Shown here piece by piece: positions 2,354 through 21,991 of a stretch of 64,000 bases of DNA. This stretch comes from Escherichia coli (GTDB taxonomy: Bacteria > Pseudomonadota > Gammaproteobacteria > Enterobacterales > Enterobacteriaceae), in NCBI RefSeq assembly GCF_013315695.1, contig NZ_CP054353.1; one strand, given 5' to 3'. Position 1 is the first letter of the stretch; each line of letters begins with the position of its first letter. The notes below the pieces were generated by a model. It had not been told where the DNA came from, ran no database searches, and worked only from the letters and a program-made list of their open reading frames with translations. The translations under genes were made by a program, and so were the position numbers.

Positions 2354-3373
<1,020 letters not shown>

Positions 3374-3377
<4 letters not shown>

Positions 3378-3685
3378 AGATATTTATGATGAGGACGCTC
3401 GTGCTTATTGGCAGGATTTTCAATCTTAAAGGAGTACTGATGCTGCAGATAAGACTCAACTTTTTCTGACAATTTTTCTGCTACTTCCAGGAAGACTTGC
3501 CGGACGCTCCTTCTGGCTGCTGCCTCATAAAACTCCAGCGCAGCTCCTTCAACACGGTCCATGGCGACATCCAGGTCAAAAATTTCACCGTCAAAGCGTT
3601 CTTTGTCCTGTAAGGCTACAGTTACCGTAACTTTATTCTCAAAATTACGGACTCCTTTCACAACCAGTTCATAGTCTTGAGTCAT
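3374..3685 (-). CDS. ydfR: Prophage protein YdfR (function unknown)
   Basis: 103-aa ORF between the holin and lysozyme genes, overlapping the lysozyme start. Confidence 0.65.
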
Positions 3686-3689
3686 TGGA

Positions 3690-3905
3690 TTACTCTCCTC
3701 TCGCAGCCTTACGCCTGTCTTCTTTAATCTTGAAATAAAGATTTGTCAGATACGTCAGCAGGCCAAAAACCAGGCTACCCAGCACACCGATTGCAGCCCA
3801 CTGTGACGGAGTTACTTTATCGAGTAACTGCAATGCCCAGAAACCAGCATTACCCGCCGATGTGCCATAGGCAACACCTGTTGTTAACTTATCCATTGAT
3901 TTCAT
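3690..3905 (-). CDS. essQ: Class II holin/pinholin (S21-like), 71 aa
   Basis: ORF 3690..3980; internal start [71 protein letters not shown] matches the phage-21 pinholin pattern (two TM helices, charged C-tail). Confidence 0.8.
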
Positions 3906-4124
3906 ATCCTCACCCCGATGTACACGGATGGTGCAATATGTTTGAAAAGCTCGGAGTCTACGGGGTAGTTTTGACAGCACACGTTGTTCTCAACGGCGCT
4001 AAAAAAACATACACATTAAAAATGTGGGTAATTATTTTGAAAGAAAGTCATATATAAAATAATAATACGAGAAATGTTTTCATATTTAGTGTACTGTATA
4101 CGGCCATTTATACAGGAAAAGCCT

Positions 4125-4295
4125 ATGTCAGAACGTAAAAACTCAAAATCACGCCGTAATTATCTCGTTAAATGTTCCTGCCCAAACTGCACCCAAGAGT
4201 CAGAACACAGTTTTTCAAGAGTACAAAAAGGTGCCCTTTTGATCTGCCCTCATTGCAACAAAGTATTCCAGACAAATCTTAAAGCTGTAGCCTGA
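4125..4295 (+). CDS. Small zinc-ribbon protein (C-x2-C ... C-x2-C), hypothetical; possibly ynfU
   Basis: ORF 4074..4295; internal start MSERKNSKSRRNYLVKCSCPNCTQESEHSFSRVQKGALLICPHCNKVF preceded by AGGAAAA; two CxxC pairs. Confidence 0.35.
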   Translation: MSERKNSKSRRNYLVKCSCPNCTQESEHSFSRVQKGALLICPHCNKVFQTNLKAVA

Positions 4296-4377: not shown

Positions 4378-4658
4378 GAGATTGTGGTGCTTTTTGTGGG
4401 AGTCATCCACTTACGCACTTTGTTTTGCCATGCCAGCAGTTAGCTTCTGCTGTAAAACTATTCATGCAGCAAACCTGCACTTCACCACAATGGTTAGCAT
4501 ACTTTTCCTGATTAAGATTTTGCCAAATATGCTAGCCATTGTTTCATGTATTGGACCTCCTTACTTTTTATTAAAGAGATCCAATATTCACTACTCTGTC
4601 CGTATCTCTACTCAGGCATCAGCCTTCTTCGTTATCGTATACAGACGAGCGATGAATT

Positions 4659-4874
4659 TTAATCAGTAATGATGACATTTGCTGCTGCAGGACCTTTAGC
4701 ACCACTCTCTATAGAGAAGGTAACCTTTTGACCTTCAAATAAGGTTCGATAATTATCATTCTGAATCGCAGAAAAATGCACAAACACATCTTTACTACCA
4801 TCAACAGGAGAAATAAAGCCGAAACCTTTATCAGCGTTAAACCATTTTACTAAACCAGTCATTTTATTTGACAT
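4659..4874 (-). CDS. cspB: Cold-shock protein CspB (CspA family)
   Basis: 71-aa [56 protein letters not shown]... Confidence 0.9.
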
Positions 4875-5174
4875 TCTACATTCCTTAACTTGAGCCTTTC
4901 GGCATAAATGGTTTGCATAACAGAAACGACTTCGTACTTAATTGGAGAGACTCAAAGAAGGAATAAGTGAATAACACCTGAAATGAGAACTGCTTTAGTA
5001 AACTACTTCGTATATCGTCTGTTCTTCAAACCGACGCAATCATTAACGCATAGTTGAACATATGAAGCAATGTTTATTTTAGACATCCAGCCATCTTCAA
5101 CCCCATCAAAAAACTATAGCTTTCTTCAGGAACGTGTGTATAGTGCGCCAAGTTATCAGTATTAAGGAATTTTT

Positions 5175-10429: not shown

Positions 10430-11900
10430 CAGAAACGCGACTTAAGAATCTACCCTATGAATGGATATGCACTCAACCGAATCGATCTTGGTTTCAATCT
10501 TTTTTATCGGGATCAGGCTTCTTTTTAGGTAACTTCGGGGGCTTAACTTGCTGATGACTTTGCGTTCGGCGCGTAAGCCAGGGATGGTCAGCTTTAGGTT
10601 TAACATAGTATTTTGAGCGTAAATCAATACGGGCATTATCCACTCGTTCATGGACACTCTTTTCATCATCCAGTGGTATAGGCTCCGGGCCATCAACATA
10701 CTTTTCCCAGCCCAGCGCTTTCCCGTCATACAGAACGTTAATTTCACCGTCAAAGTTCTCGCATACAGTAACAACCGAATGCCTAAGTCGATATCCCCGG
10801 CCCTCACTGCGTACCTGAAACGCACTGCTTTTGTACTGGAAAGTGAGATTTTTAGACAGAACGCGCTTCGCCTGTAGGCTGAAGATATAACCCAGTTCCT
10901 CTTCAGAATGGTGCACATCAAGATGAGCATTATCAGTAGTACGAGGCGACGTAGCGAACCGGTTGTTATAGGCTTCAATAAAGGTCGGCAACCATGCATT
11001 TGCTGTTTCAATATCACTGATATTCTGAAGCCGCATTTCTTTGACCAGCCTGTCCTGTAGTGTCTGATTGGCGCGCTCTACCCGCCCTTTTGCCTGCGGG
11101 CTGTTGGCATGGATTGGCTCGATGCCCAGTGTCTTTATCGCACGAGTGAACTGGGTCAGCTCACCTTCCCGCTCTGGGTTATTTACCCTGAATATACTGT
11201 GTCTATCAGAGTAGAGAGCGAGCGGTACGCCATGATCATTAAGGTAACCCCGGAGGGTTTCCATGTAAGCCCGGGTTGTTTCAGCAGGCACAAAACGCAA
11301 CGCCATCAACGCACTGGTGGCATCATCAATGAAAACGATCAGTGTACATCTGGGGCCTCGATTTTCAAACCAGTCATGAGGTGAGCCATCAATCTGGATC
11401 AGTTCACCGTAAGATGGTCGTCGCATGCGGCGTTGATATATACGGGCAATTTTACGACGGCGTTCACGCCATAACCCCTCTTCTATCATCCACTTTCTGA
11501 GAGTTTCAACGGATAAAGATAAACCGTGTATCTCGCGCAATTTTTCGCACGCAAACGTAGGTCCAAAATCAGCGTAACGGCCTTTGAGGAGTGAAATTAC
11601 TGTTGCTCTGAATTCAGTAGAAAAGGAATTATTAGGACGCTTTCCACGTCGGTGGGAAACCAGAGCAGAAGGCCCTTCATTTCTATACCGTTGCACCAGA
11701 CGTTTAACCTGCCGAATAGAAATGCCAATGCGTGCCGCAGCTTGTTCCTGAATAATCTGAAGTCGGTGGAGTTCCTTATGACTCATCGTAACAGTCTCTT
11801 TGATCATGAAAAATCCCCCAGAGAATTGTCTGGGGACATTTTAGAATGGTTCAAAGGGGACATTACAGCTTGGTGTTAACAATAGCCTGCTTCTCCGTGC
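10430..11900 (-). mobile_element. Probable insertion sequence carrying a single DDE (rve-type) transposase; boundaries approximate
   Basis: Single 437-aa transposase ORF flanked by non-coding DNA with GGGGACA-type repeats and a candidate imperfect terminal repeat (AGGCTATT... at ~10330 and ~11885); ends not resolved. Confidence 0.4.
10494..11807 (-). CDS. DDE transposase, integrase-core (rve) type with N-terminal HTH (IS481/ISNCY-like)
   Basis: 437-aa ORF with N-terminal HTH (AARIGISIRQVKRLVQRY) and core ...IDGSPHDWF...FIDDATS...YSDRHSIF...SPQAKGRVERANQTLQDRL... Confidence 0.6.
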   Translation of the reverse strand: MIKETVTMSHKELHRLQIIQEQAAARIGISIRQVKRLVQRYRNEGPSALVSHRRGKRPNNSFSTEFRATVISLLKGRYADFGPTFACEKLREIHGLSLSVETLRKWMIEEGLWRERRRKIARIYQRRMRRPSYGELIQIDGSPHDWFENRGPRCTLIVFIDDATSALMALRFVPAETTRAYMETLRGYLNDHGVPLALYSDRHSIFRVNNPEREGELTQFTRAIKTLGIEPIHANSPQAKGRVERANQTLQDRLVKEMRLQNISDIETANAWLPTFIEAYNNRFATSPRTTDNAHLDVHHSEEELGYIFSLQAKRVLSKNLTFQYKSSAFQVRSEGRGYRLRHSVVTVCENFDGEINVLYDGKALGWEKYVDGPEPIPLDDEKSVHERVDNARIDLRSKYYVKPKADHPWLTRRTQSHQQVKPPKLPKKKPDPDKKD

Positions 11901-12141
11901 CTTTCGGCACGTAAGAGGCTAACCTACATGTGTCTAGCATGAAATTGGCCTCAGATTAATGTTAAGCGTCTTGCAGGACGCGTAATGTTAACTGGGGCTT
12001 TTCTCTATCTGCCGTTGGTGTCCATGCCCGAGGCAGATAGCCTCAAGCACCCGCAGTCATTCTACTTAACTAAGATTTCCCCGCAAACCGTTTTTGTCCA
12101 GCACAGTAAATATCCAACTAAACCAATGGAGTTCGCTGTAT

Positions 12142-13473: not shown

Positions 13474-13830
13474 TTAAAAAATCAGAACGCCGTGCGGCCT
13501 CAACACCCGAAAGGCTTCTTTAAATCTCTGTCGCGAATCATCACGCCAGGCATCTTTATTCAGCCGTCCATATTTCTTTCCCATCCAGGCGTTATCACCA
13601 ACACTCTCAAGATGCGGAGGGTCTAATACAACCATCGAAAAAGATGCGTCTGCAAATGATAATGCACGAAAATCTGCGATAATGTCAGGGCTGATAATCA
13701 AGCGTCTCCCATTGCGTAATGTGTATCCTTCTTTTCTGATATCGCTGAATATCGCCCGTTCGTCAGACTTATCGAACCAGAACATGCGGCTGCCACAGCA
13801 CATATCAAGAATGGTTGCCGGTGCACTCAC
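13474..13830 (-). CDS. DNA methyltransferase-like protein, probably C-terminally truncated
   Basis: 118-aa ORF with SAM-binding-like motif ILDMCCGS and catalytic-like motif VVLDPPH; ends abruptly after PHGVLIF. Confidence 0.4.
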   Translation of the reverse strand: MSAPATILDMCCGSRMFWFDKSDERAIFSDIRKEGYTLRNGRRLIISPDIIADFRALSFADASFSMVVLDPPHLESVGDNAWMGKKYGRLNKDAWRDDSRQRFKEAFRVLRPHGVLIF

Positions 13831-14249
13831 TGCGCCACGTCCTGAAAATTACCCTGATAGAAAGCCAGTATGCGCTGCATAACTTCGCTCTTCCGGCACT
13901 CGCGACAGATTATGTTTAGGCGACTGTCGTAGCGACGTATTTCTCCGTCAGGTGATGACCAGATAAGGTCCGGATCAACCACAGCAGGTTTCTTCACCTT
14001 TGCCCTCGAGAGTTTTTTGCGGGCGTTTTGCCAGTCCTTACGCGCCTGTTCAGAGGGGAATAACCCGTAGCCGGAGTTGTATACATCGCCACTGGCTACC
14101 AGCTCTCTGGCAAGAACGCTCATCAGATATCTAGTCGCACCTGTTTTAGCTTCCAGTTGCCGTAACGTCTCACGGCCGCTCTGGCGCACGAGTTCCACCA
14201 CCTGCCATTTAATTTTTTCCCGCTCTTCTTGTGTAAAAACTTTTGCCAC
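13827..14249 (-). CDS. Hypothetical phage early-region protein (140 aa)
   Basis: ORF between the replication-initiator-like gene and the methyltransferase-like gene, overlapping start/stop; no family recognised. Confidence 0.35.
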   Translation of the reverse strand: MAKVFTQEEREKIKWQVVELVRQSGRETLRQLEAKTGATRYLMSVLARELVASGDVYNSGYGLFPSEQARKDWQNARKKLSRAKVKKPAVVDPDLIWSSPDGEIRRYDSRLNIICRECRKSEVMQRILAFYQGNFQDVAQ

Positions 14250-14289: not shown

Positions 14290-15255
14290 TTATCCTCTGA
14301 AACCAGGCGGAATTTCTGTATCCGGTTCAGAAATATGATTAACACAACGCTGTACAGGTGAACGTCCCAGGCGGATGACCAGTTCGTCCCATTTTTCGCG
14401 GAGCTTTGACGGGCTCATGATGTTTTTTACCCAGAATGGATCTCGCTGAACCCGACCAAACATTTCGCAAATTTGTCTGTGGCTTCTGCCATCCAGCATC
14501 CGCATTGTGCGCACGTCATTGGCCCAGGCAGTCCAGTTAGGCTCTTTTGGTCGCATGATCTCGCCATCATCACTGGCTGCCTGTTCGTAGAGACCCACGA
14601 TCCGCCCCCAGATCCACTGCGCACACGCCAAATCCTCCCTGCTACCCCACTGGCGTTTTTTCGCACTAAACACAACCGCGTCGGAGTTCCGGGTTAAAAA
14701 ATCCTGTTCAGTCGTCTGCGGGTCCGGTTGCGAAGCTTCCGGACGAAAAGTGTTTTTATTCTCTGTAGTAATCTCTGTTGTATTCTCTGTAAGATCATCA
14801 GGCCATTTTGACCCGATGACATTGGGTCGTTTTGAACCAATGGAGCGTTTCATTTTGACCTCTTCCATCGTGTCATTTTGACCTGATGGAGCGGCGCATT
14901 TTGAACCGATGGATTCGCTCAATTTGCCACCATCTAAAAGCTCGCTCCCATAGTTGATCGTGTAGAAATTGGTCATATCGCGCTTTGATTTATTGAGCTT
15001 TTCACAACGCAAAAGCCCCAGCGTTTTCAGACTTGCAAACGCGCGCTTTAACGTTGACTCTGACCAGAATGGGAACTGTTCCAGCCATTGTTCCGTTGTG
15101 TTATAAATCCAGCGAACACCATCACATTCCATGCCGGAGTTGGTATCTCTCAACCAGTAGTGCAGTTGTTGCAAAACAATGGCTTCGTTTAAGCCAATTT
15201 TCATTGCCAGCTGCGTGTTTATAACCAGTGGGCGTTCAGCAAAAAGAAGGCTCAT
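14290..15255 (-). CDS. Phage replication initiator-like protein (lambda O-like), iterons inside the coding sequence
   Basis: ORF 14290..15309 (likely start MSLLFAERPL at 15255); the SIGSK...SIGSK...VIGSK peptide repeats are encoded by a DNA iteron array. Confidence 0.5.
   Translation of the reverse strand: MSLLFAERPLVINTQLAMKIGLNEAIVLQQLHYWLRDTNSGMECDGVRWIYNTTEQWLEQFPFWSESTLKRAFASLKTLGLLRCEKLNKSKRDMTNFYTINYGSELLDGGKLSESIGSKCAAPSGQNDTMEEVKMKRSIGSKRPNVIGSKWPDDLTENTTEITTENKNTFRPEASQPDPQTTEQDFLTRNSDAVVFSAKKRQWGSREDLACAQWIWGRIVGLYEQAASDDGEIMRPKEPNWTAWANDVRTMRMLDGRSHRQICEMFGRVQRDPFWVKNIMSPSKLREKWDELVIRLGRSPVQRCVNHISEPDTEIPPGFRG
14803..14935. repeat. Iteron array (~6 copies of CATTTTGA(A/C)C(C/T)GATGG at ~23-bp spacing); candidate prophage replication origin
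   Basis: Repeats read directly at ~14803, 14827, 14850, 14873, 14896 and 14919. Confidence 0.6.
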
Positions 15256-15757
15256 AATTCCATCCAGCTTTTTGTTGGTATTGCTGTCGATACGCAAGTT
15301 TGAAAGCAATTGCTTTTTCTATAAGTTCGTCAGTTTCACGATCCACTACGGCAGGATCAGCAAAAAGCAGTCCGGACTCCACCACATCGCCATATTCTTT
15401 GTTTAACCCGGCGATCATGCACGTGATGCTTTTTCCGTCAGTAATTTCACGATACAACCTGAAATCATTAATCCGGATAGCCTCCATAATTGCAGGCACT
15501 AGCGCCGTGAACTTTTCACGCTTATCCCTAGTGTCGATAGCCTTCCAGCGTTCAAATATCTTCACTCGATTAACGCCAAGCGCTCGCTGATCAATCGCGC
15601 CACCTTCATATGTGACACGCTGAACATCGATGTTCGGGCGCTCTTTCAAAGCCCAGAATGCTTCAGTGATTAATATCGTCGCCTGCTCCTGTGTCATTCC
15701 TGGTCGACATATCCAGGCATCCAGAGCCTCACGAGCCTGTTCAGGAGTGATTTTCAT
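15236..15757 (-). CDS. Hypothetical phage early protein downstream of the Cro-like gene (173 aa)
   Basis: ORF overlapping the dicC stop; no family recognised. Confidence 0.4.
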   Translation of the reverse strand: MKITPEQAREALDAWICRPGMTQEQATILITEAFWALKERPNIDVQRVTYEGGAIDQRALGVNRVKIFERWKAIDTRDKREKFTALVPAIMEAIRINDFRLYREITDGKSITCMIAGLNKEYGDVVESGLLFADPAVVDRETDELIEKAIAFKLAYRQQYQQKAGWNYEPSFC

Positions 15758-15971
15758 TGTTCAACCGCCCCGCCCGCTTCGTCTTACGATATTCATCATA
15801 AACTTTGGGATCATACTGAAGCTCCCCGCCAGATGCCTCCTGTAGACGCATCGCGCGACCTTCGGGAACTAAATCCCCTTTCCAGCTATAAAGCGAAGCC
15901 AAACGAATACCTGCTGCTTGTGCAAGTTTTGTTTTTGAACCGAAATACAAAAGAGCGTCAGTTTTAAGCAT
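15741..15971 (-). CDS. dicC: DicC, Cro-like regulator of dicB
   Basis: 76-aa ORF MLKTDALLYFGSKTKLAQAAGIRLASLYSWKGD... (HTH), divergent from dicA. Confidence 0.8.
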   Translation of the reverse strand: MLKTDALLYFGSKTKLAQAAGIRLASLYSWKGDLVPEGRAMRLQEASGGELQYDPKVYDEYRKTKRAGRLNNENHS

Positions 15972-16054: not shown

Positions 16055-16462
16055 ATGGAAACAAAAAATTTAACTATCGGCGAACGCATCAGGTATCGTC
16101 GGAAAAACCTCAAACACACCCAAAGGTCTCTTGCTAAAGCCCTGAAAATCTCCCATGTGTCTGTATCACAATGGGAACGGGGTGATAGTGAACCTACAGG
16201 GAAGAACCTTTTTGCCCTCAGCAAAGTATTGCAATGCTCACCAACATGGATTCTATTTGGCGATGAAGACAAGCAACCAACACCACCTGTTGAGAAGCCA
16301 GTTGCCTTATCCCCCAAAGAACTAGAGCTCCTTGAGCTGTTTAATGCACTGCCAGAATCAGAACAGGATACCCAGCTCGCCGAAATGCGAGCTCGAGTAA
16401 AAAACTTCAATAAACTCTTTGAAGAATTACTAAAAGCCCGTCAGCGGACAAATAAAAGATAA
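16055..16462 (+). CDS. dicA: DicA, HTH repressor of the dicB operon
   Basis: 135-aa ORF METKNLTIGERIRYRRKNLKHTQRSLAKALKISHVSVSQWERG... (Xre-type HTH). Confidence 0.9.
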   Translation: METKNLTIGERIRYRRKNLKHTQRSLAKALKISHVSVSQWERGDSEPTGKNLFALSKVLQCSPTWILFGDEDKQPTPPVEKPVALSPKELELLELFNALPESEQDTQLAEMRARVKNFNKLFEELLKARQRTNKR

Positions 16463-17502: not shown

Positions 17503-17557
17503 TTTCTGGTGACGTTTGGCGGTATCAGTTTTACTCCGTGACTGCTCTGCCGCCCTT
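17503..17557 (+). ncRNA. dicF: DicF small regulatory RNA (anti-ftsZ)
   Basis: Sequence TTTCTGGTGACGTTTGGCGGTATCAGTTTTACTCCGTGACTGCTCTGCCGCCC followed by TTTTT matches DicF as I remember it; directly upstream of dicB. Confidence 0.8.
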
Positions 17558-18162: not shown

Positions 18163-19326
18163 TTGTTCATCCTTAAATCTGTCATGAGGTTAAAACAAAT
18201 GAGTAAAGTCTTTATTTGCGCCGCTATTCCTGACGAACTGGCAACAAGGGAAGAAGGCGCTGTGGCTGTAGCCACAGCCATTGAAGCTGGCGACGAACGC
18301 CGTGCTCGAGCAAAATTTCACTGGCAATTCCTGGAACATTATCCGGCTGCTCAGGACTGCGCTTATAAATTTATTGTCTGCGAGGATAAACCTGGCATAC
18401 CCCGCCCTGCCCTCGATTCATGGGATGCTGAATATATGCAGGAAAACCGCTGGGATGAGGAGTCTGCTTCTTTTGTCCCGGTTGAGACTGAATCCGATCC
18501 GATGAACGTCACTTTTGACAAGCTGGCCCCTGAAGTACAGAACGCTGTCATGGTTAAGTTCGACACATGTGAAAACATCACCGTTGATATGGTTATTAGC
18601 GCACAGGAATTGTTGCAGGAAGACATGGCAACATTCGACGGACATATCGTTGAAGCGTTGATGAAAATGCCAGAAGTTAACGCCATGTATCCGGAGCTTA
18701 AGCTGCATGCCATCGGGTGGGTTAAGCATAAATGTAAGCCTGGTGCCAAATGGCCCGAAATTCAGGCAGAGATGCGCATCTGGAAAAAACGTCGCGAAGG
18801 TGAACGTAAGGAAACCGGAAAATACACGTCTGTTATTGATCTCGCCCGCGCCAGAACCAATCAACAGCACAGTGAAAATTCAACAGGAAAAATCAGCCCG
18901 GTCATTGCTGCCATTCATCGCGAATACAAGCAGACATGGAAAACACTGGATGACGAACTGGCCTACGCTCTCTGGCCTGGTGATGTGGATGCCGGAAACA
19001 TTGACGGCAGCATCCATCGCTGGGCAAAAAATGAAGTTATCGACAACGACCGCGAAGACTGGAAGCGTATCTCGGCATCAATGCGCAAACAGCCTGATGC
19101 CCTTCGCTACGACCGCCAAACTATTTTTGGCCTTGTCCGTGAGCGTCCGATCGACATTCACAAAGATCCCGTAGCACTGAACAAATATATCTGCGAATAC
19201 CTGACGACAAAGGGCGTGTTTGAGAATGAAGAAACAGACCTGGGCACTGTTGATGTTCTCCAGTCATCAGAAACACAAACTGATGCAGTGGAAACTGAGT
19301 ATTTCCAGACATCTGTTATCACTTAA
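18163..19326 (+). pseudogene. ydfE: ydfE-like prophage gene whose 3-prime end runs into IS2 (C-terminus replaced by IS-derived codons)
   Basis: ORF continues 27 bp past the IS2 boundary at 19300 before stopping; true start uncertain (candidates at 18199 or 18403). Confidence 0.55.
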
Positions 19327-20202
19327 CCCATTACAAGCCCGCTGCCGCAGATATTCCCGTGGCGAGCGATAACCCAGCGCACTATGCGGATGCCATTCGT
19401 TATAATGCTCGAACGCCTCTGCAAGGTTCTTTGCTGCCGTTAACCCGTCTGGTTTGGGCATGATACTGATGTAGTCACGCTTTATCGTTTTCACGAAGCT
19501 CTCTGCTATTCCGTTACTCTCCGGACTCCGCACCGCCGTGTTCTTCGGTTCAAGTCCCAACATCCGGGCGAACTGGCGTGTTTCATTAGCCCGGTAGCAT
19601 GAACCATTATCCGTCAGCCACTCCACTGGAGACGACGGAAGATCGTTGCCGAAGCGGCGTTCCACCGCTCCCAGCATGACGTCCTGTACTGTTTCACTGT
19701 TGAAGCCGCCGGTAGTGACCGCCCAGTGCAGTGCCTCACGATCACTGCAGTCCAGCGCGAACGTGACACGCAGTCTCTCTCCGTTATCACAGCAGAACTC
19801 GAACCCGTCAGAGCACCATCGCTGATTGCTTTCTTTCACGGCCACTCTGCCTGTATGTGCCCGTTTCGATGGCGGTACAGCAGGTTTTCGCTCAAGCAAC
19901 AGCGCATTCTGGCGCATGATCCGGTAAACACGTTTGGCATTGATCGCAGGCATACCATCAAGTTCTGCCTGTCTGCGAAGCAGCGCCCATACCCGACGAT
20001 AACCATACGTGGGCAGCTCTCCGATAACATGGTGTATACGGAGAAGCACATCCGTATCATCAGTGTGACGACTGCGGCGGCCATCCATCCAGTCATCGGT
20101 TCGTCTGAGAATGACGTGCAACTGCGCACGCGACACCCGGAGACAACGGCTGACTAAGCTTACTCCCCATCCCCGGGCAATAAGGGCGCGTGCGCTATCC
20201 AC
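19267..20202 (-). CDS. insD: IS2 transposase OrfB (InsD) with ~10-codon C-terminal extension into flanking DNA
   Basis: 311-aa ORF; body matches InsD through ...[11 protein letters not shown], then continues [10 protein letters not shown] because the normal stop lies in the missing IS2 terminus. Confidence 0.85.
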
Positions 20203-20616
20203 TTTTTTGCCCGTCCATATTCAACGGCTTCTTTGAGGAGTTCATTTTCCATCGTTTTCTTGCCGAGCAGGCGCTGGAGTTCTTTAATCTGCTTCATGGC
20301 GGCAGCAAGTTCAGAGGCAGGAACAACCTGTTCTCCGGCGGCGACAGCAGTAAGACTTCCTTCCTGGTATTGCTTACGCCAGAGAAATAACTGGCTGGCT
20401 GCTACACCATGTTGCCGGGCAACGAGGGAGACCGTCATCCCCGGTTCAAAGCTCTGCTGAACAATTGCGATCTTTTCCTGTGTGGTACGCCGTCTGCGTT
20501 TCTCCGGTCCTAAGACATCAATCATCTGCTCTCCAATGACTAGTCTAAAAACTAGTATTAAGACTATCACTTAAATAAGTGATACTGGTTGTCTGGAGAT
20601 TCAGGGGGCCAGTCTA
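19300..20616 (-). mobile_element. IS2 copy (1317 bp), missing ~14 bp of one terminus
   Basis: insC/insD ORF pair; one end GGTTGTCTGGAGATTCAGGGGGCCAGTCTA intact at 20587-20616; the other end matches IS2 only from TATTTCCAGACATCTG inward. Confidence 0.8.
20160..20525 (-). CDS. insC: IS2 OrfA (InsC)
   Basis: ORF 20160..20570 with internal start [41 protein letters not shown]... Confidence 0.85.
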
Positions 20617-21991
20617 TGAGGTATCTGATATCCCAAAAAATGAAACCGCGCCGGAAGCTGAACCATCTGTAGAGCGTGAGGGGCCGTTCTATTTCCTCTT
20701 CGCAGATAAGGACGGAGAAAAATGCGGTCGCGCAAACAAACTTTCTGGTCTGGATAAGGCACTGGCTGCTGGCGCCACTGAAATCACAAAAGAAGAATAT
20801 TTTGCCCGAAAAAATGGCACATACACGGGCTTACCGCAAAATGTAGATACCGCTGAAGATTCAGAACAACCAGAGCCGATAAAAGTTACCGCTGACGAAG
20901 TAAACAAAATTATGCAGGCAGCCAATATCAGCCAGCCTGACGCCGATAAGTTGCTTGCTGCATCACGTGGTGAATTTGTTGAAGGGATTAGTGACCCGAA
21001 TGATCCGAAATGGGTTAAGGGGATCCAGACCCGCGATTCTGTGAACCAGAACCAGCATGAATCGGAACGGAACTACCAAAAAGCGGAACAAAACAGCCCA
21101 AATGCGTTACAAAACGAGCCAGAAACGAAACAGCCTGAACCAGTGGCGCAACAGGAAGTGGAAAAAGTCTGCACCGCCTGCGGTCAGACCGGCGGCGGCA
21201 ACTGCCCTGATTGTGGCGCGGTGATGGGCGACGCAACATACCAGGAAACATTCGATGAAGAGTATCAGGTTGAAGTTCAGGAAGATGATCCGGAGGAAAT
21301 GGAAGGCGCTGAACATCCACACAAGGAGAACACTGGCGGCAATCAGCATCACGATAGCGATAATGAAACTGGCGAGACGGCAGATCGCTCAATTAAGGTG
21401 AACGGTCATCACGAAATCACATCCACCAGCAGGACGTGTGACCATCTAATGATCGACCTTGAAACCATGGGAAAAAATCCTGATGCCCCGATCATCTCAA
21501 TAGGTGCAATATTTTTCGATCCGCAAACCGGAGATATGGGACCGGAATTTAGTAAGACTATCGATCTGGAAACTGCTGGCGGAGTCATTGATCGGGACAC
21601 CATTAAATGGTGGCTTAAGCAATCACGCGAAGCGCAATCTGCCATTATGACCGATGAAATCCCGTTAGATGATGCACTGTTACAATTGCGGGAATTTATC
21701 GACGAAAACTCCGGTGAATTTTTTGTTCAGGTTTGGGGAAATGGAGCCAACTTCGACAACACGATTTTGCGCCGTTCATACGAACGGCAGGGGATCCCCT
21801 GCCCGTGGCGTTACTACAACGATCGCGATGTACGCACAATCGTTGAGCTGGGGAAAGCCATAGACTTCGATGCCAGAACGGCTATTCCATTCGAAGGTGA
21901 GCGCCATAATGCACTTGATGACGCCCGTTACCAGGCAAAATACGTTTCAGTTATCTGGCAAAAACTGATCCCGAGTCAGGCTGATTCTTAA
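20617..21991 (+). pseudogene. Prophage exonuclease-like gene, 5-prime truncated by IS2: zinc-ribbon motif plus C-terminal DEDDh 3-prime-5-prime exonuclease domain
   Basis: Reading frame is open from the IS2 edge with no start codon in host DNA; [16 protein letters not shown] motif; DEDDh motifs [27 protein letters not shown]. Confidence 0.5.

Follow-up and report, generated by a model that had tools for sequence, protein, structure and literature searches.

The window, meaning here the whole stretch of 64 kb of Escherichia coli DNA that was analysed, carries a lambdoid prophage of the Qin-like (dicA-dicC) type, in a fuller version than Qin. Its genes come in the order dicA, dicC (cro-like), a YdaT/cII-like gene, the replication initiator gene considered here, a DUF977/Ren-like gene, a methyltransferase gene, pseudogenes and an ISNCY remnant. 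The neighbours of the initiator gene and the RNA features of the window are the following:

16055-16462, plus strand: dicA repressor gene (cI analogue), divergent from dicC (RefSeq)
15741-15971, minus strand: dicC (cro-like), first gene of the operon reading through the predicted origin (RefSeq)
15236-15757, minus strand: YdaT/cII-like gene of the same operon, upstream of the initiator gene (PHROG 163, E 5.5e-40; RefSeq)
13827-14249, minus strand: DUF977/Ren-like (LygF) gene, directly after the initiator gene (PHROG 142, E 1.6e-47; synteny with lambda)
17504-17555, plus strand: DicF small RNA, between ydfC and dicB (Rfam)
1749-2134 and 4643-5035, minus strand: two cspA-type thermoregulator leaders, upstream of cspI and cspB
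11881-12052, minus strand: match to the sok antitoxin RNA (Rfam, 104 bits), adjoining the ISNCY remnant

The cspA-type leaders and DicF are expected features of Qin, while the sok match may correspond to an unannotated hok/sok-type locus, the matching RefSeq record having no gene annotated there. The Ren-like gene stands where P, followed by ren, is found in lambda. An IS2 copy at 19303-20616 interrupts the prophage's recE-like exonuclease gene, which resumes at 20617, with the excisionase and integrase genes lying beyond, as in E. coli W. In view of this IS2, the ISNCY remnant and the pseudogenes, the name of cryptic prophage given to the element in the original prediction is a fair one. As for strain MSB1_4I, it is 99.8% identical to the window up to 20616 (blastn) and differently arranged past it, with a different junction at the IS2.

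The initiator gene and the features found inside it are, from its 5' to its 3' end:

14290-15255, minus strand: O-like replication initiator gene, 321 aa, RefSeq WP_000054512.1 'hypothetical protein' (PHROG, BLASTP, RefSeq)
14941-15255, minus strand: N-terminal winged-helix domain, aa 1-105, presumed to bind the iterons (AlphaFold2 model, PDB structure search)
14796-14934, minus strand: predicted iteron array (repeat finders, consensus scoring, motif count, dyad covariation)
14757-14792, minus strand: AT-rich element of three 12-mers, in gene sense ACAGAGAATACA, ACAGAGATTACT and ACAGAGAATAAA, a candidate DNA-unwinding element (TRF, repeat search, stability, conservation)
14374-14748, minus strand: lambda-O-like C-terminal domain, aa ~170-294 (tblastn, BLASTP)
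14293-14331, minus strand: C-terminal tail SEPDTEIPPGFRG, near-identical to the C-terminus of host DnaT, SEPDSQIPPGFRG (phmmer, NCBIfam, tail census)

The length of 339 aa first attributed to this reading frame has to be corrected, since it makes use of an upstream TTG; the RefSeq start is the ATG at 15255, giving 321 aa. The supposed kinship with phage initiators was confirmed both by the PHROG 391 profile ('replication initiation O-like'), which residues 17-321 match over its full length (profile positions 11-298 of 298, E 1.1e-91), and by the C-terminal homology to lambda O, residues 147-294 aligning to residues 135-270 of the latter with 34% identity (BLASTP, E 1e-26). Against lambda O and Stx-phage O, the C-terminal domain shows 34-36% identity over about 125-148 residues (tblastn, 2e-16). 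An identical protein is annotated as 'DNA replication protein O' in the phage record PhiR42_1. The Pfam scan of the initiator gave noise only and no significant domain, with neither the PF04492 Phage_rep_O N-terminal domain nor a sequence match to RepA_N, and the NCBIfam scan returned only a weak match of the DnaT tail.

Concerning the N-terminal domain, the AlphaFold2 model of residues 1-110 (pLDDT 85, pTM 0.76) has the winged-helix topology H-H-b-b-H-H-b-b. Its best PDB matches are the N-terminal domains of staphylococcal plasmid RepA initiators (4pql, 5kbj, 4pt7; E 4.5e-3 to 5.7e-2, TM 0.55-0.63), ordinary winged-helix regulators following close behind, and the model supports a predicted DNA-binding winged helix, nothing more specific. 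The RepA_N initiators of Gram-positive plasmids, to which these matches belong (pSK41 and pTZ2162 RepA), are winged-helix dimers that bind iterons located in the rep gene, although they have no sequence match to the domain of the window protein and the structure scores are weak (E 4.5e-3, TM about 0.6).

The array consists of six 23-bp units placed head to tail, at 14796-14934 in plus-strand letters, inside the initiator gene on the minus strand. The units start in register at 14796, 14820, 14843, 14866, 14889 and 14912; in the order of the gene, their match to the 23-bp consensus CATCGGGTCATTTTGACCCGATG, their start within the gene and their translation are:

14912-14934, minus strand: weak unit, 14 of 23 consensus positions; gene nt 322, codon position 1, DGGKL
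14889-14911, minus strand: 18 of 23; gene nt 345, codon position 3, SIGSK
14866-14888, minus strand: 21 of 23; gene nt 368, codon position 2, PSGQN
14843-14865, minus strand: one half-site left, 15 of 23; gene nt 391, codon position 1, EEVKM
14820-14842, minus strand: 19 of 23; gene nt 414, codon position 3, SIGSK
14796-14818, minus strand: 21 of 23; gene nt 438, codon position 3, VIGSK

In gene sense, the consensus reads CATCGGGTCA AAA TGACCCGATG. The motif itself starts on the plus strand at 14804, 14828, 14851, 14874, 14897 and 14920 (spacings of 24, 23, 23, 23 and 23 bp), so that the copies first reported from ~14803 to 14919 had been placed correctly to within one base. Their number and their periodicity of ~23 bp are borne out by the sequence, by TRF (23-bp period at 14830-14913) and by the repeat-family search, which returned 23-bp-spaced families and units that are partly self-complementary; their quality, on the other hand, is uneven, with four good units (18-21 of 23 positions), one half-site and one weak unit. 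The array has the make-up of iterons, namely at least three copies of a 17-24-bp site repeated in the same direction, about two helical turns apart. With at most one mismatch, the core GGTCAAAATG occurs 14 times on both strands of the 64 kb, vs. 6.65 expected, and four of the 14 matches cluster on the same strand within 103 bp, with gaps of 47, 23 and 23 bp; this clustering rules out a chance origin of the array. No second repeat cluster matching the motif was found in the 64-kb window, and no RNA family was found by Rfam over the array region. The core of the unit at 14889 is polymorphic, C being replaced by T in 13 of 78 loci and also in mEp460_ev081.

In the direction of the gene, the three 12-mers come directly after the last unit of the array. 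An AT-rich region immediately downstream of the iterons, the presence of which remained to be checked, was indeed found at 14753-14792: this 40-mer (28% GC) is the least stable one inside the reading frame, with a dG of -44.3 vs. a mean of -54.0 ± 3.8. An easily melted AT-rich segment thus adjoins the iterons, although it is of modest AT-richness (28-35% GC) and the nearby dicA-dicC intergenic DNA is just as extreme in its instability. The element is present in 9/9 lineages, from E. coli to Pseudomonas phages. Within the 12-mers of these nine lineages, threonine is encoded by ACA in 25/25 cases and glutamate by GAG in 24/24, vs. 17% and 52%, respectively, elsewhere in the same genes, and this invariant codon use indicates that the element is also constrained as DNA.

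Several variants of this segment were encountered among the IMG/VR loci. One has five 12-mers instead of three (gene nt ~460-520) and encodes 329 aa; in another, the initiator gene is cut within the 12-mers, at gene nt ~480, by an insertion whose end, as we take it, resembles IS629. In 17 loci, identity to the window is 96-100% over the N-domain, iterons and 12-mers, vs. 83-90% over the C-terminal part (compared with window 14290-14750), which suggests a recombination junction just past the 12-mers, a modular exchange point seen also between more distant phages. Finally, a 37-nt stretch of the element (window 14760-14796) is matched at 97% within a different 'hypothetical protein' gene of E. 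coli NZ_CP142915.1; the 12-mer element may be common to other initiator types.

Each unit of the array is an imperfect 10+3+10 palindrome, the best ones being symmetric at 8 of the 10 positions. The scan of viral contigs with the N-domain yielded only loci 98-100% identical, which were used for polymorphism and are unsuited to covariation; the diverse relatives were therefore those obtained by tblastn against the phage collection, i.e. Klebsiella, Erwinia, Pantoea, Hafnia, Providencia and Pseudomonas phages as well as mEp460_4F5, with an N-terminal domain 55-79% identical. A multi-unit array of ~23-bp period is found at the same place in 8/9 lineages, while Pseudomonas AF retains two units only. 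The window, mEp460_4F5, Klebsiella and Providencia have the core GGTCA..TGACC; Erwinia Stean, Pseudomonas AF, Pantoea AH07 and SopranoGao have GGGCA..TGCCC, and Hafnia yong2 has GGACA..TGTCC. Dyad positions 8 and 16 consequently change together: four lineages have T:A, four have G:C and the remaining one has A:T, so that three core states are spread over nine lineages. Complementary cells number 306/460 vs. 267 ± 7.5 after shuffling, with 0/5000 shuffles reaching the observed value, shuffles which ignore the kinship of units within one phage. By pair count, 69.6% of the positions are paired and 0/500 shuffles are as high, the within-phage kinship of units again not being removed, vs. 26-41% in slid controls where the partner was moved by 1-3 columns.

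Over these nine lineages and three core types, changes in the iterons go hand in hand with changes in the DNA-binding domain of the initiator. Klebsiella phages have both the N-domain (72-75% identity) and the iterons in common with the window gene and a different, DnaD-like C-domain; conversely, Shigella VIT_AJPSC shares the C-domain (44% identity) and has another N-domain and other repeats, of 15 bp (TCTGACCCGTCAAAA). Judging from these sequence comparisons, the arrays go with the N-domain rather than with the C-domain, swaps of the latter leaving the iterons unchanged. Residue 67 (codon at window 15055-15057), where the predicted recognition helix begins, differs between the three core types: Ser accompanies T:A (four lineages), Asp G:C (four) and Lys A:T (one). 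It is a candidate specificity determinant, with a correlation that may be confounded by phylogeny.

In phage lambda, the iterons start at gene nt 349, 369, 393 and 416 (spacings of 20, 24 and 23), with the AT-rich segment coming after them; in the window gene, the array occupies nt 322-460 and the 12-mers nt 464-499. When the two proteins are aligned, the last unit and the 12-mers (IGSKWPDDLTENTTEITTENKNTF) fall opposite lambda iteron 3/4 and the AT-rich region (LGDCYPSKQGDTKDTITKEKRKDY), to within ~4 codons. The predicted origin, like that of lambda, lies inside the initiator gene, between its DNA-binding and C-terminal domains, and both consist of dyad direct repeats at 20-24-bp spacing with a TCAAAA core and an AT-rich stretch next to them; both proteins share a homologous C-terminal domain and are encoded after cII in the cro operon. 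They differ in that ori-lambda has four dyad iterons of 18-19 bp vs. six 23-bp units in the window, where the AT-rich part is made of three conserved 12-mers. The N-terminal domains are unrelated in sequence, the window protein having no PF04492 match. Moreover, lambda has the P gene after O and no DnaT-like tail on O, whereas the window has the tail and no P.

In this last respect, the module is that of the O-only lambdoid phages, i.e. those with a single O homolog and no helicase or loader gene. According to a 2025 survey (Genome Res 2025, PMC12315714), 34 of 314 Enterobacteriales lambdoid phages, e.g. LLS, have an O homolog only; the survey describes all of these phages as unstudied and their mode of replication as not understood, and gives the CI repressor and Cro of mEp460_4F5 as the closest known relatives of those of LLS. 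The N-domain of mEp460_4F5 is 79% identical to that of the window and its array is of the same type. By its gene content, the window module is of the O-only class, with the difference that the window locus is a defective chromosomal prophage.

Taken together, the anatomy, the O-like homology, the selection at the DNA level on both elements (see below for the array), the co-variation of iterons and N-domain and the colinearity with ori-lambda were all computed here, and we consider it probable, at roughly 0.8, that the units of the array are iterons, bound by the initiator, of a lambda-style origin of replication contained in the gene of its own initiator. The lambdoid ori proposed in the original prediction is thereby supported by PHROG 391, the lambda O C-domain, the AT-rich element and the colinearity.

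Three other explanations of the array were weighed. The region codes for a low-complexity linker between two domains, in which SIGSK or VIGSK appears three times, and the repeat might be one of protein, a flexible SIGSK-type linker selected for its amino acids and devoid of any function as DNA. The peptide had been presented as the common product of the six units; SIGSK is in fact encoded twice and VIGSK once, the remaining units being read in other frames (PSGQN, EEVKM and DGGKL). As 23 bp is not a multiple of three and the units fall in all three codon phases, such a period could not be maintained by selection on a peptide, and the reading-frame analysis led us to reject a peptide-level repeat. 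In addition, a dyad symmetry with compensatory changes would be meaningless for a peptide. In a comparison of 59 near-identical IMG/VR loci, the variable sites of the N-terminal domain are 22 synonymous and 2 nonsynonymous, vs. 1 synonymous and 7 nonsynonymous in the iteron region (Fisher p = 8e-5), a contrast expected if the DNA of the array, and not its amino acids, is constrained. With nonsynonymous changes outnumbering synonymous ones by 7 to 1 inside the array and its three frames giving unrelated peptides, a linker selected as protein is hardly credible, and the pattern of the sequences is that of a repeat kept at the DNA level.

The same sites could also serve mainly for control, as initiator or regulator sites involved in autoregulation, copy-number 'handcuffing' or a transcriptional roadblock, with the true start elsewhere in the prophage; the dyads and their covariation indeed point to protein binding and not to initiation. 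Plasmid iterons serve initiation as well as control. However, the array is flanked by a 12-mer element conserved at the DNA level in 9/9 lineages, it is colinear with ori-lambda and the 64-kb window has no other cluster of the motif, which makes a purely regulatory array unlikely. The damage to the prophage (IS2 in the exonuclease gene, ISNCY remnant, pseudogenes) and a module without helicase-loader gene would rather agree with a dead relic of a former origin, whose sites and protein no longer work in a defective Qin-like prophage. Yet the gene is intact and its product lies two residues from the HannyBb protein, which comes with the same array; the 22 synonymous vs. 2 nonsynonymous sites of the N-domain indicate purifying selection, and the absence of a loader is normal for the class, phages with complete genome records included. 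A dead relic is accordingly considered quite improbable.

For the iteron-based origin that we prefer, we infer the following course of transcriptional activation, binding, unwinding and helicase delivery. Relief of repression by DicA would let transcription of the dicC operon run across the region, yielding the 321-aa O-like protein. Dimers of its N-terminal winged helix would bind the 23-bp dyad units, and the resulting nucleoprotein complex would destabilise the three adjoining AT-rich 12-mers, after which the C-terminal part of the protein would bring in the replicative helicase. No P or DnaC gene was found in the module of the window, where the initiator gene is followed by the DUF977/Ren-like gene and then by the methyltransferase gene. 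Since such a gene is missing and the protein carries a DnaT tail, helicase delivery probably goes via the host DnaB-DnaC. The prophage being defective and repressed, the candidate origin may never fire in place.

As regards this tail, the initiator ends in ...VNHISEPDTEIPPGFRG and E. coli DnaT in ...VNTVSEPDSQIPPGFRG: the last 13 residues are near-identical and form the extreme C-terminus in both, the window protein being otherwise unrelated to the N- and C-terminal domains of DnaT. With phmmer, the DnaT chains 2ru8, 6aep and 9zbt of the PDB are matched at E 0.013-0.044, with the ends aligned. The NCBIfam DnaT model is matched at positions 160-179 with 16.2 bits, on the tail alone and far from a whole-protein match (cut-off 201 bits); because of this confinement, the name 'Primosomal protein I' that RAST gives to phage copies of the gene reflects the tail and nothing else of the protein. 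In the literature, residues 160-179 of DnaT are described as a flexible 20-residue tail, and the 1-161 truncation forms dimers. A 2026 paper on the preprimosome structure states that the way in which DnaB-DnaC is recruited in replication restart is still unknown. Our literature search for a DnaT-like tail on phage initiators found no description of one.

By tblastn census, the tail is present in 46 phage records; in those inspected, it ends a replication protein, in several unrelated C-terminal contexts. Its bearers include Rac YdaU, Gifsy-2 gpO, Shigella 75/02 gp15, Tritos and SPN1S, the initiator of this last Salmonella phage presumably carrying, from its appearance, the whole DnaT C-terminal domain. 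In a small and non-random sample of eleven tail-bearing lineages, the next gene is DnaC-like in three and no loader is annotated nearby in the other eight, while a P-type loader or helicase follows the initiator in 0/11. Tail-less relatives, for their part, have lambda P, the conserved partner phrog_6028 or a primase-helicase, with the exception of Providencia PSTCR8lys, which has neither the tail nor an evident loader. Over these eleven lineages, the tail would seem to go with DnaC-type loading and never with P. Its use as a marker of O-only phages was dropped, as Rac YdaU, Gifsy-2 gpO and Shigella 75/02 gp15 combine the tail with a DnaC-like gene.

In the tail-less Erwinia Stean (3372-4187) and Klebsiella SopranoGao (3505-4188), the gene that comes next encodes the phrog_6028 protein, of unknown function. 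Its N-terminus weakly resembles the helicase loader phrog_2289 (E 2.7e-4), and it may belong to an unrecognised loader family.

As a tentative proposal, which we regard as possible and rather doubtful, the DnaT-like tail (..PD..IPxGFRG) would be a portable motif coupling a phage origin-binding protein to a DnaC-type loader, be it the host DnaB-DnaC or a phage DnaC paralogue.

The gene is by no means confined to the window. In the phage record HannyBb, a complete genome whose source is given as 'bird poop', the protein differs by two substitutions, while the array and the Ren-like gene downstream are the same; the record mEp460_ev081 has nearly the same gene and array. The N-half and the origin segment are present in 1,886 of the 5,426 complete E. 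coli genomes. In phage records, the gene is named O protein, O-like or 'Primosomal protein I', whereas the RefSeq annotation of E. coli has 'hypothetical protein' in every record among the matches listed.

An origin inside the initiator gene is a textbook layout, and the core finding is in this sense a confirmation and an extension. A function is nevertheless proposed for a gene present in 1,886 of 5,426 complete E. coli genomes and called 'hypothetical protein' in every E. coli record among the matches listed, and an origin anatomy (iterons, 12-mers and a candidate specificity residue) is defined for a lambdoid class that the 2025 survey flags as common and not understood. The tail adds a concrete, sequence-based hypothesis for the loading of the host helicase by O-only phages: if true, a portable tail would explain how O-only lambdoid phages manage without P and, by extension, DnaT's own tail may recruit DnaB-DnaC during replication restart.
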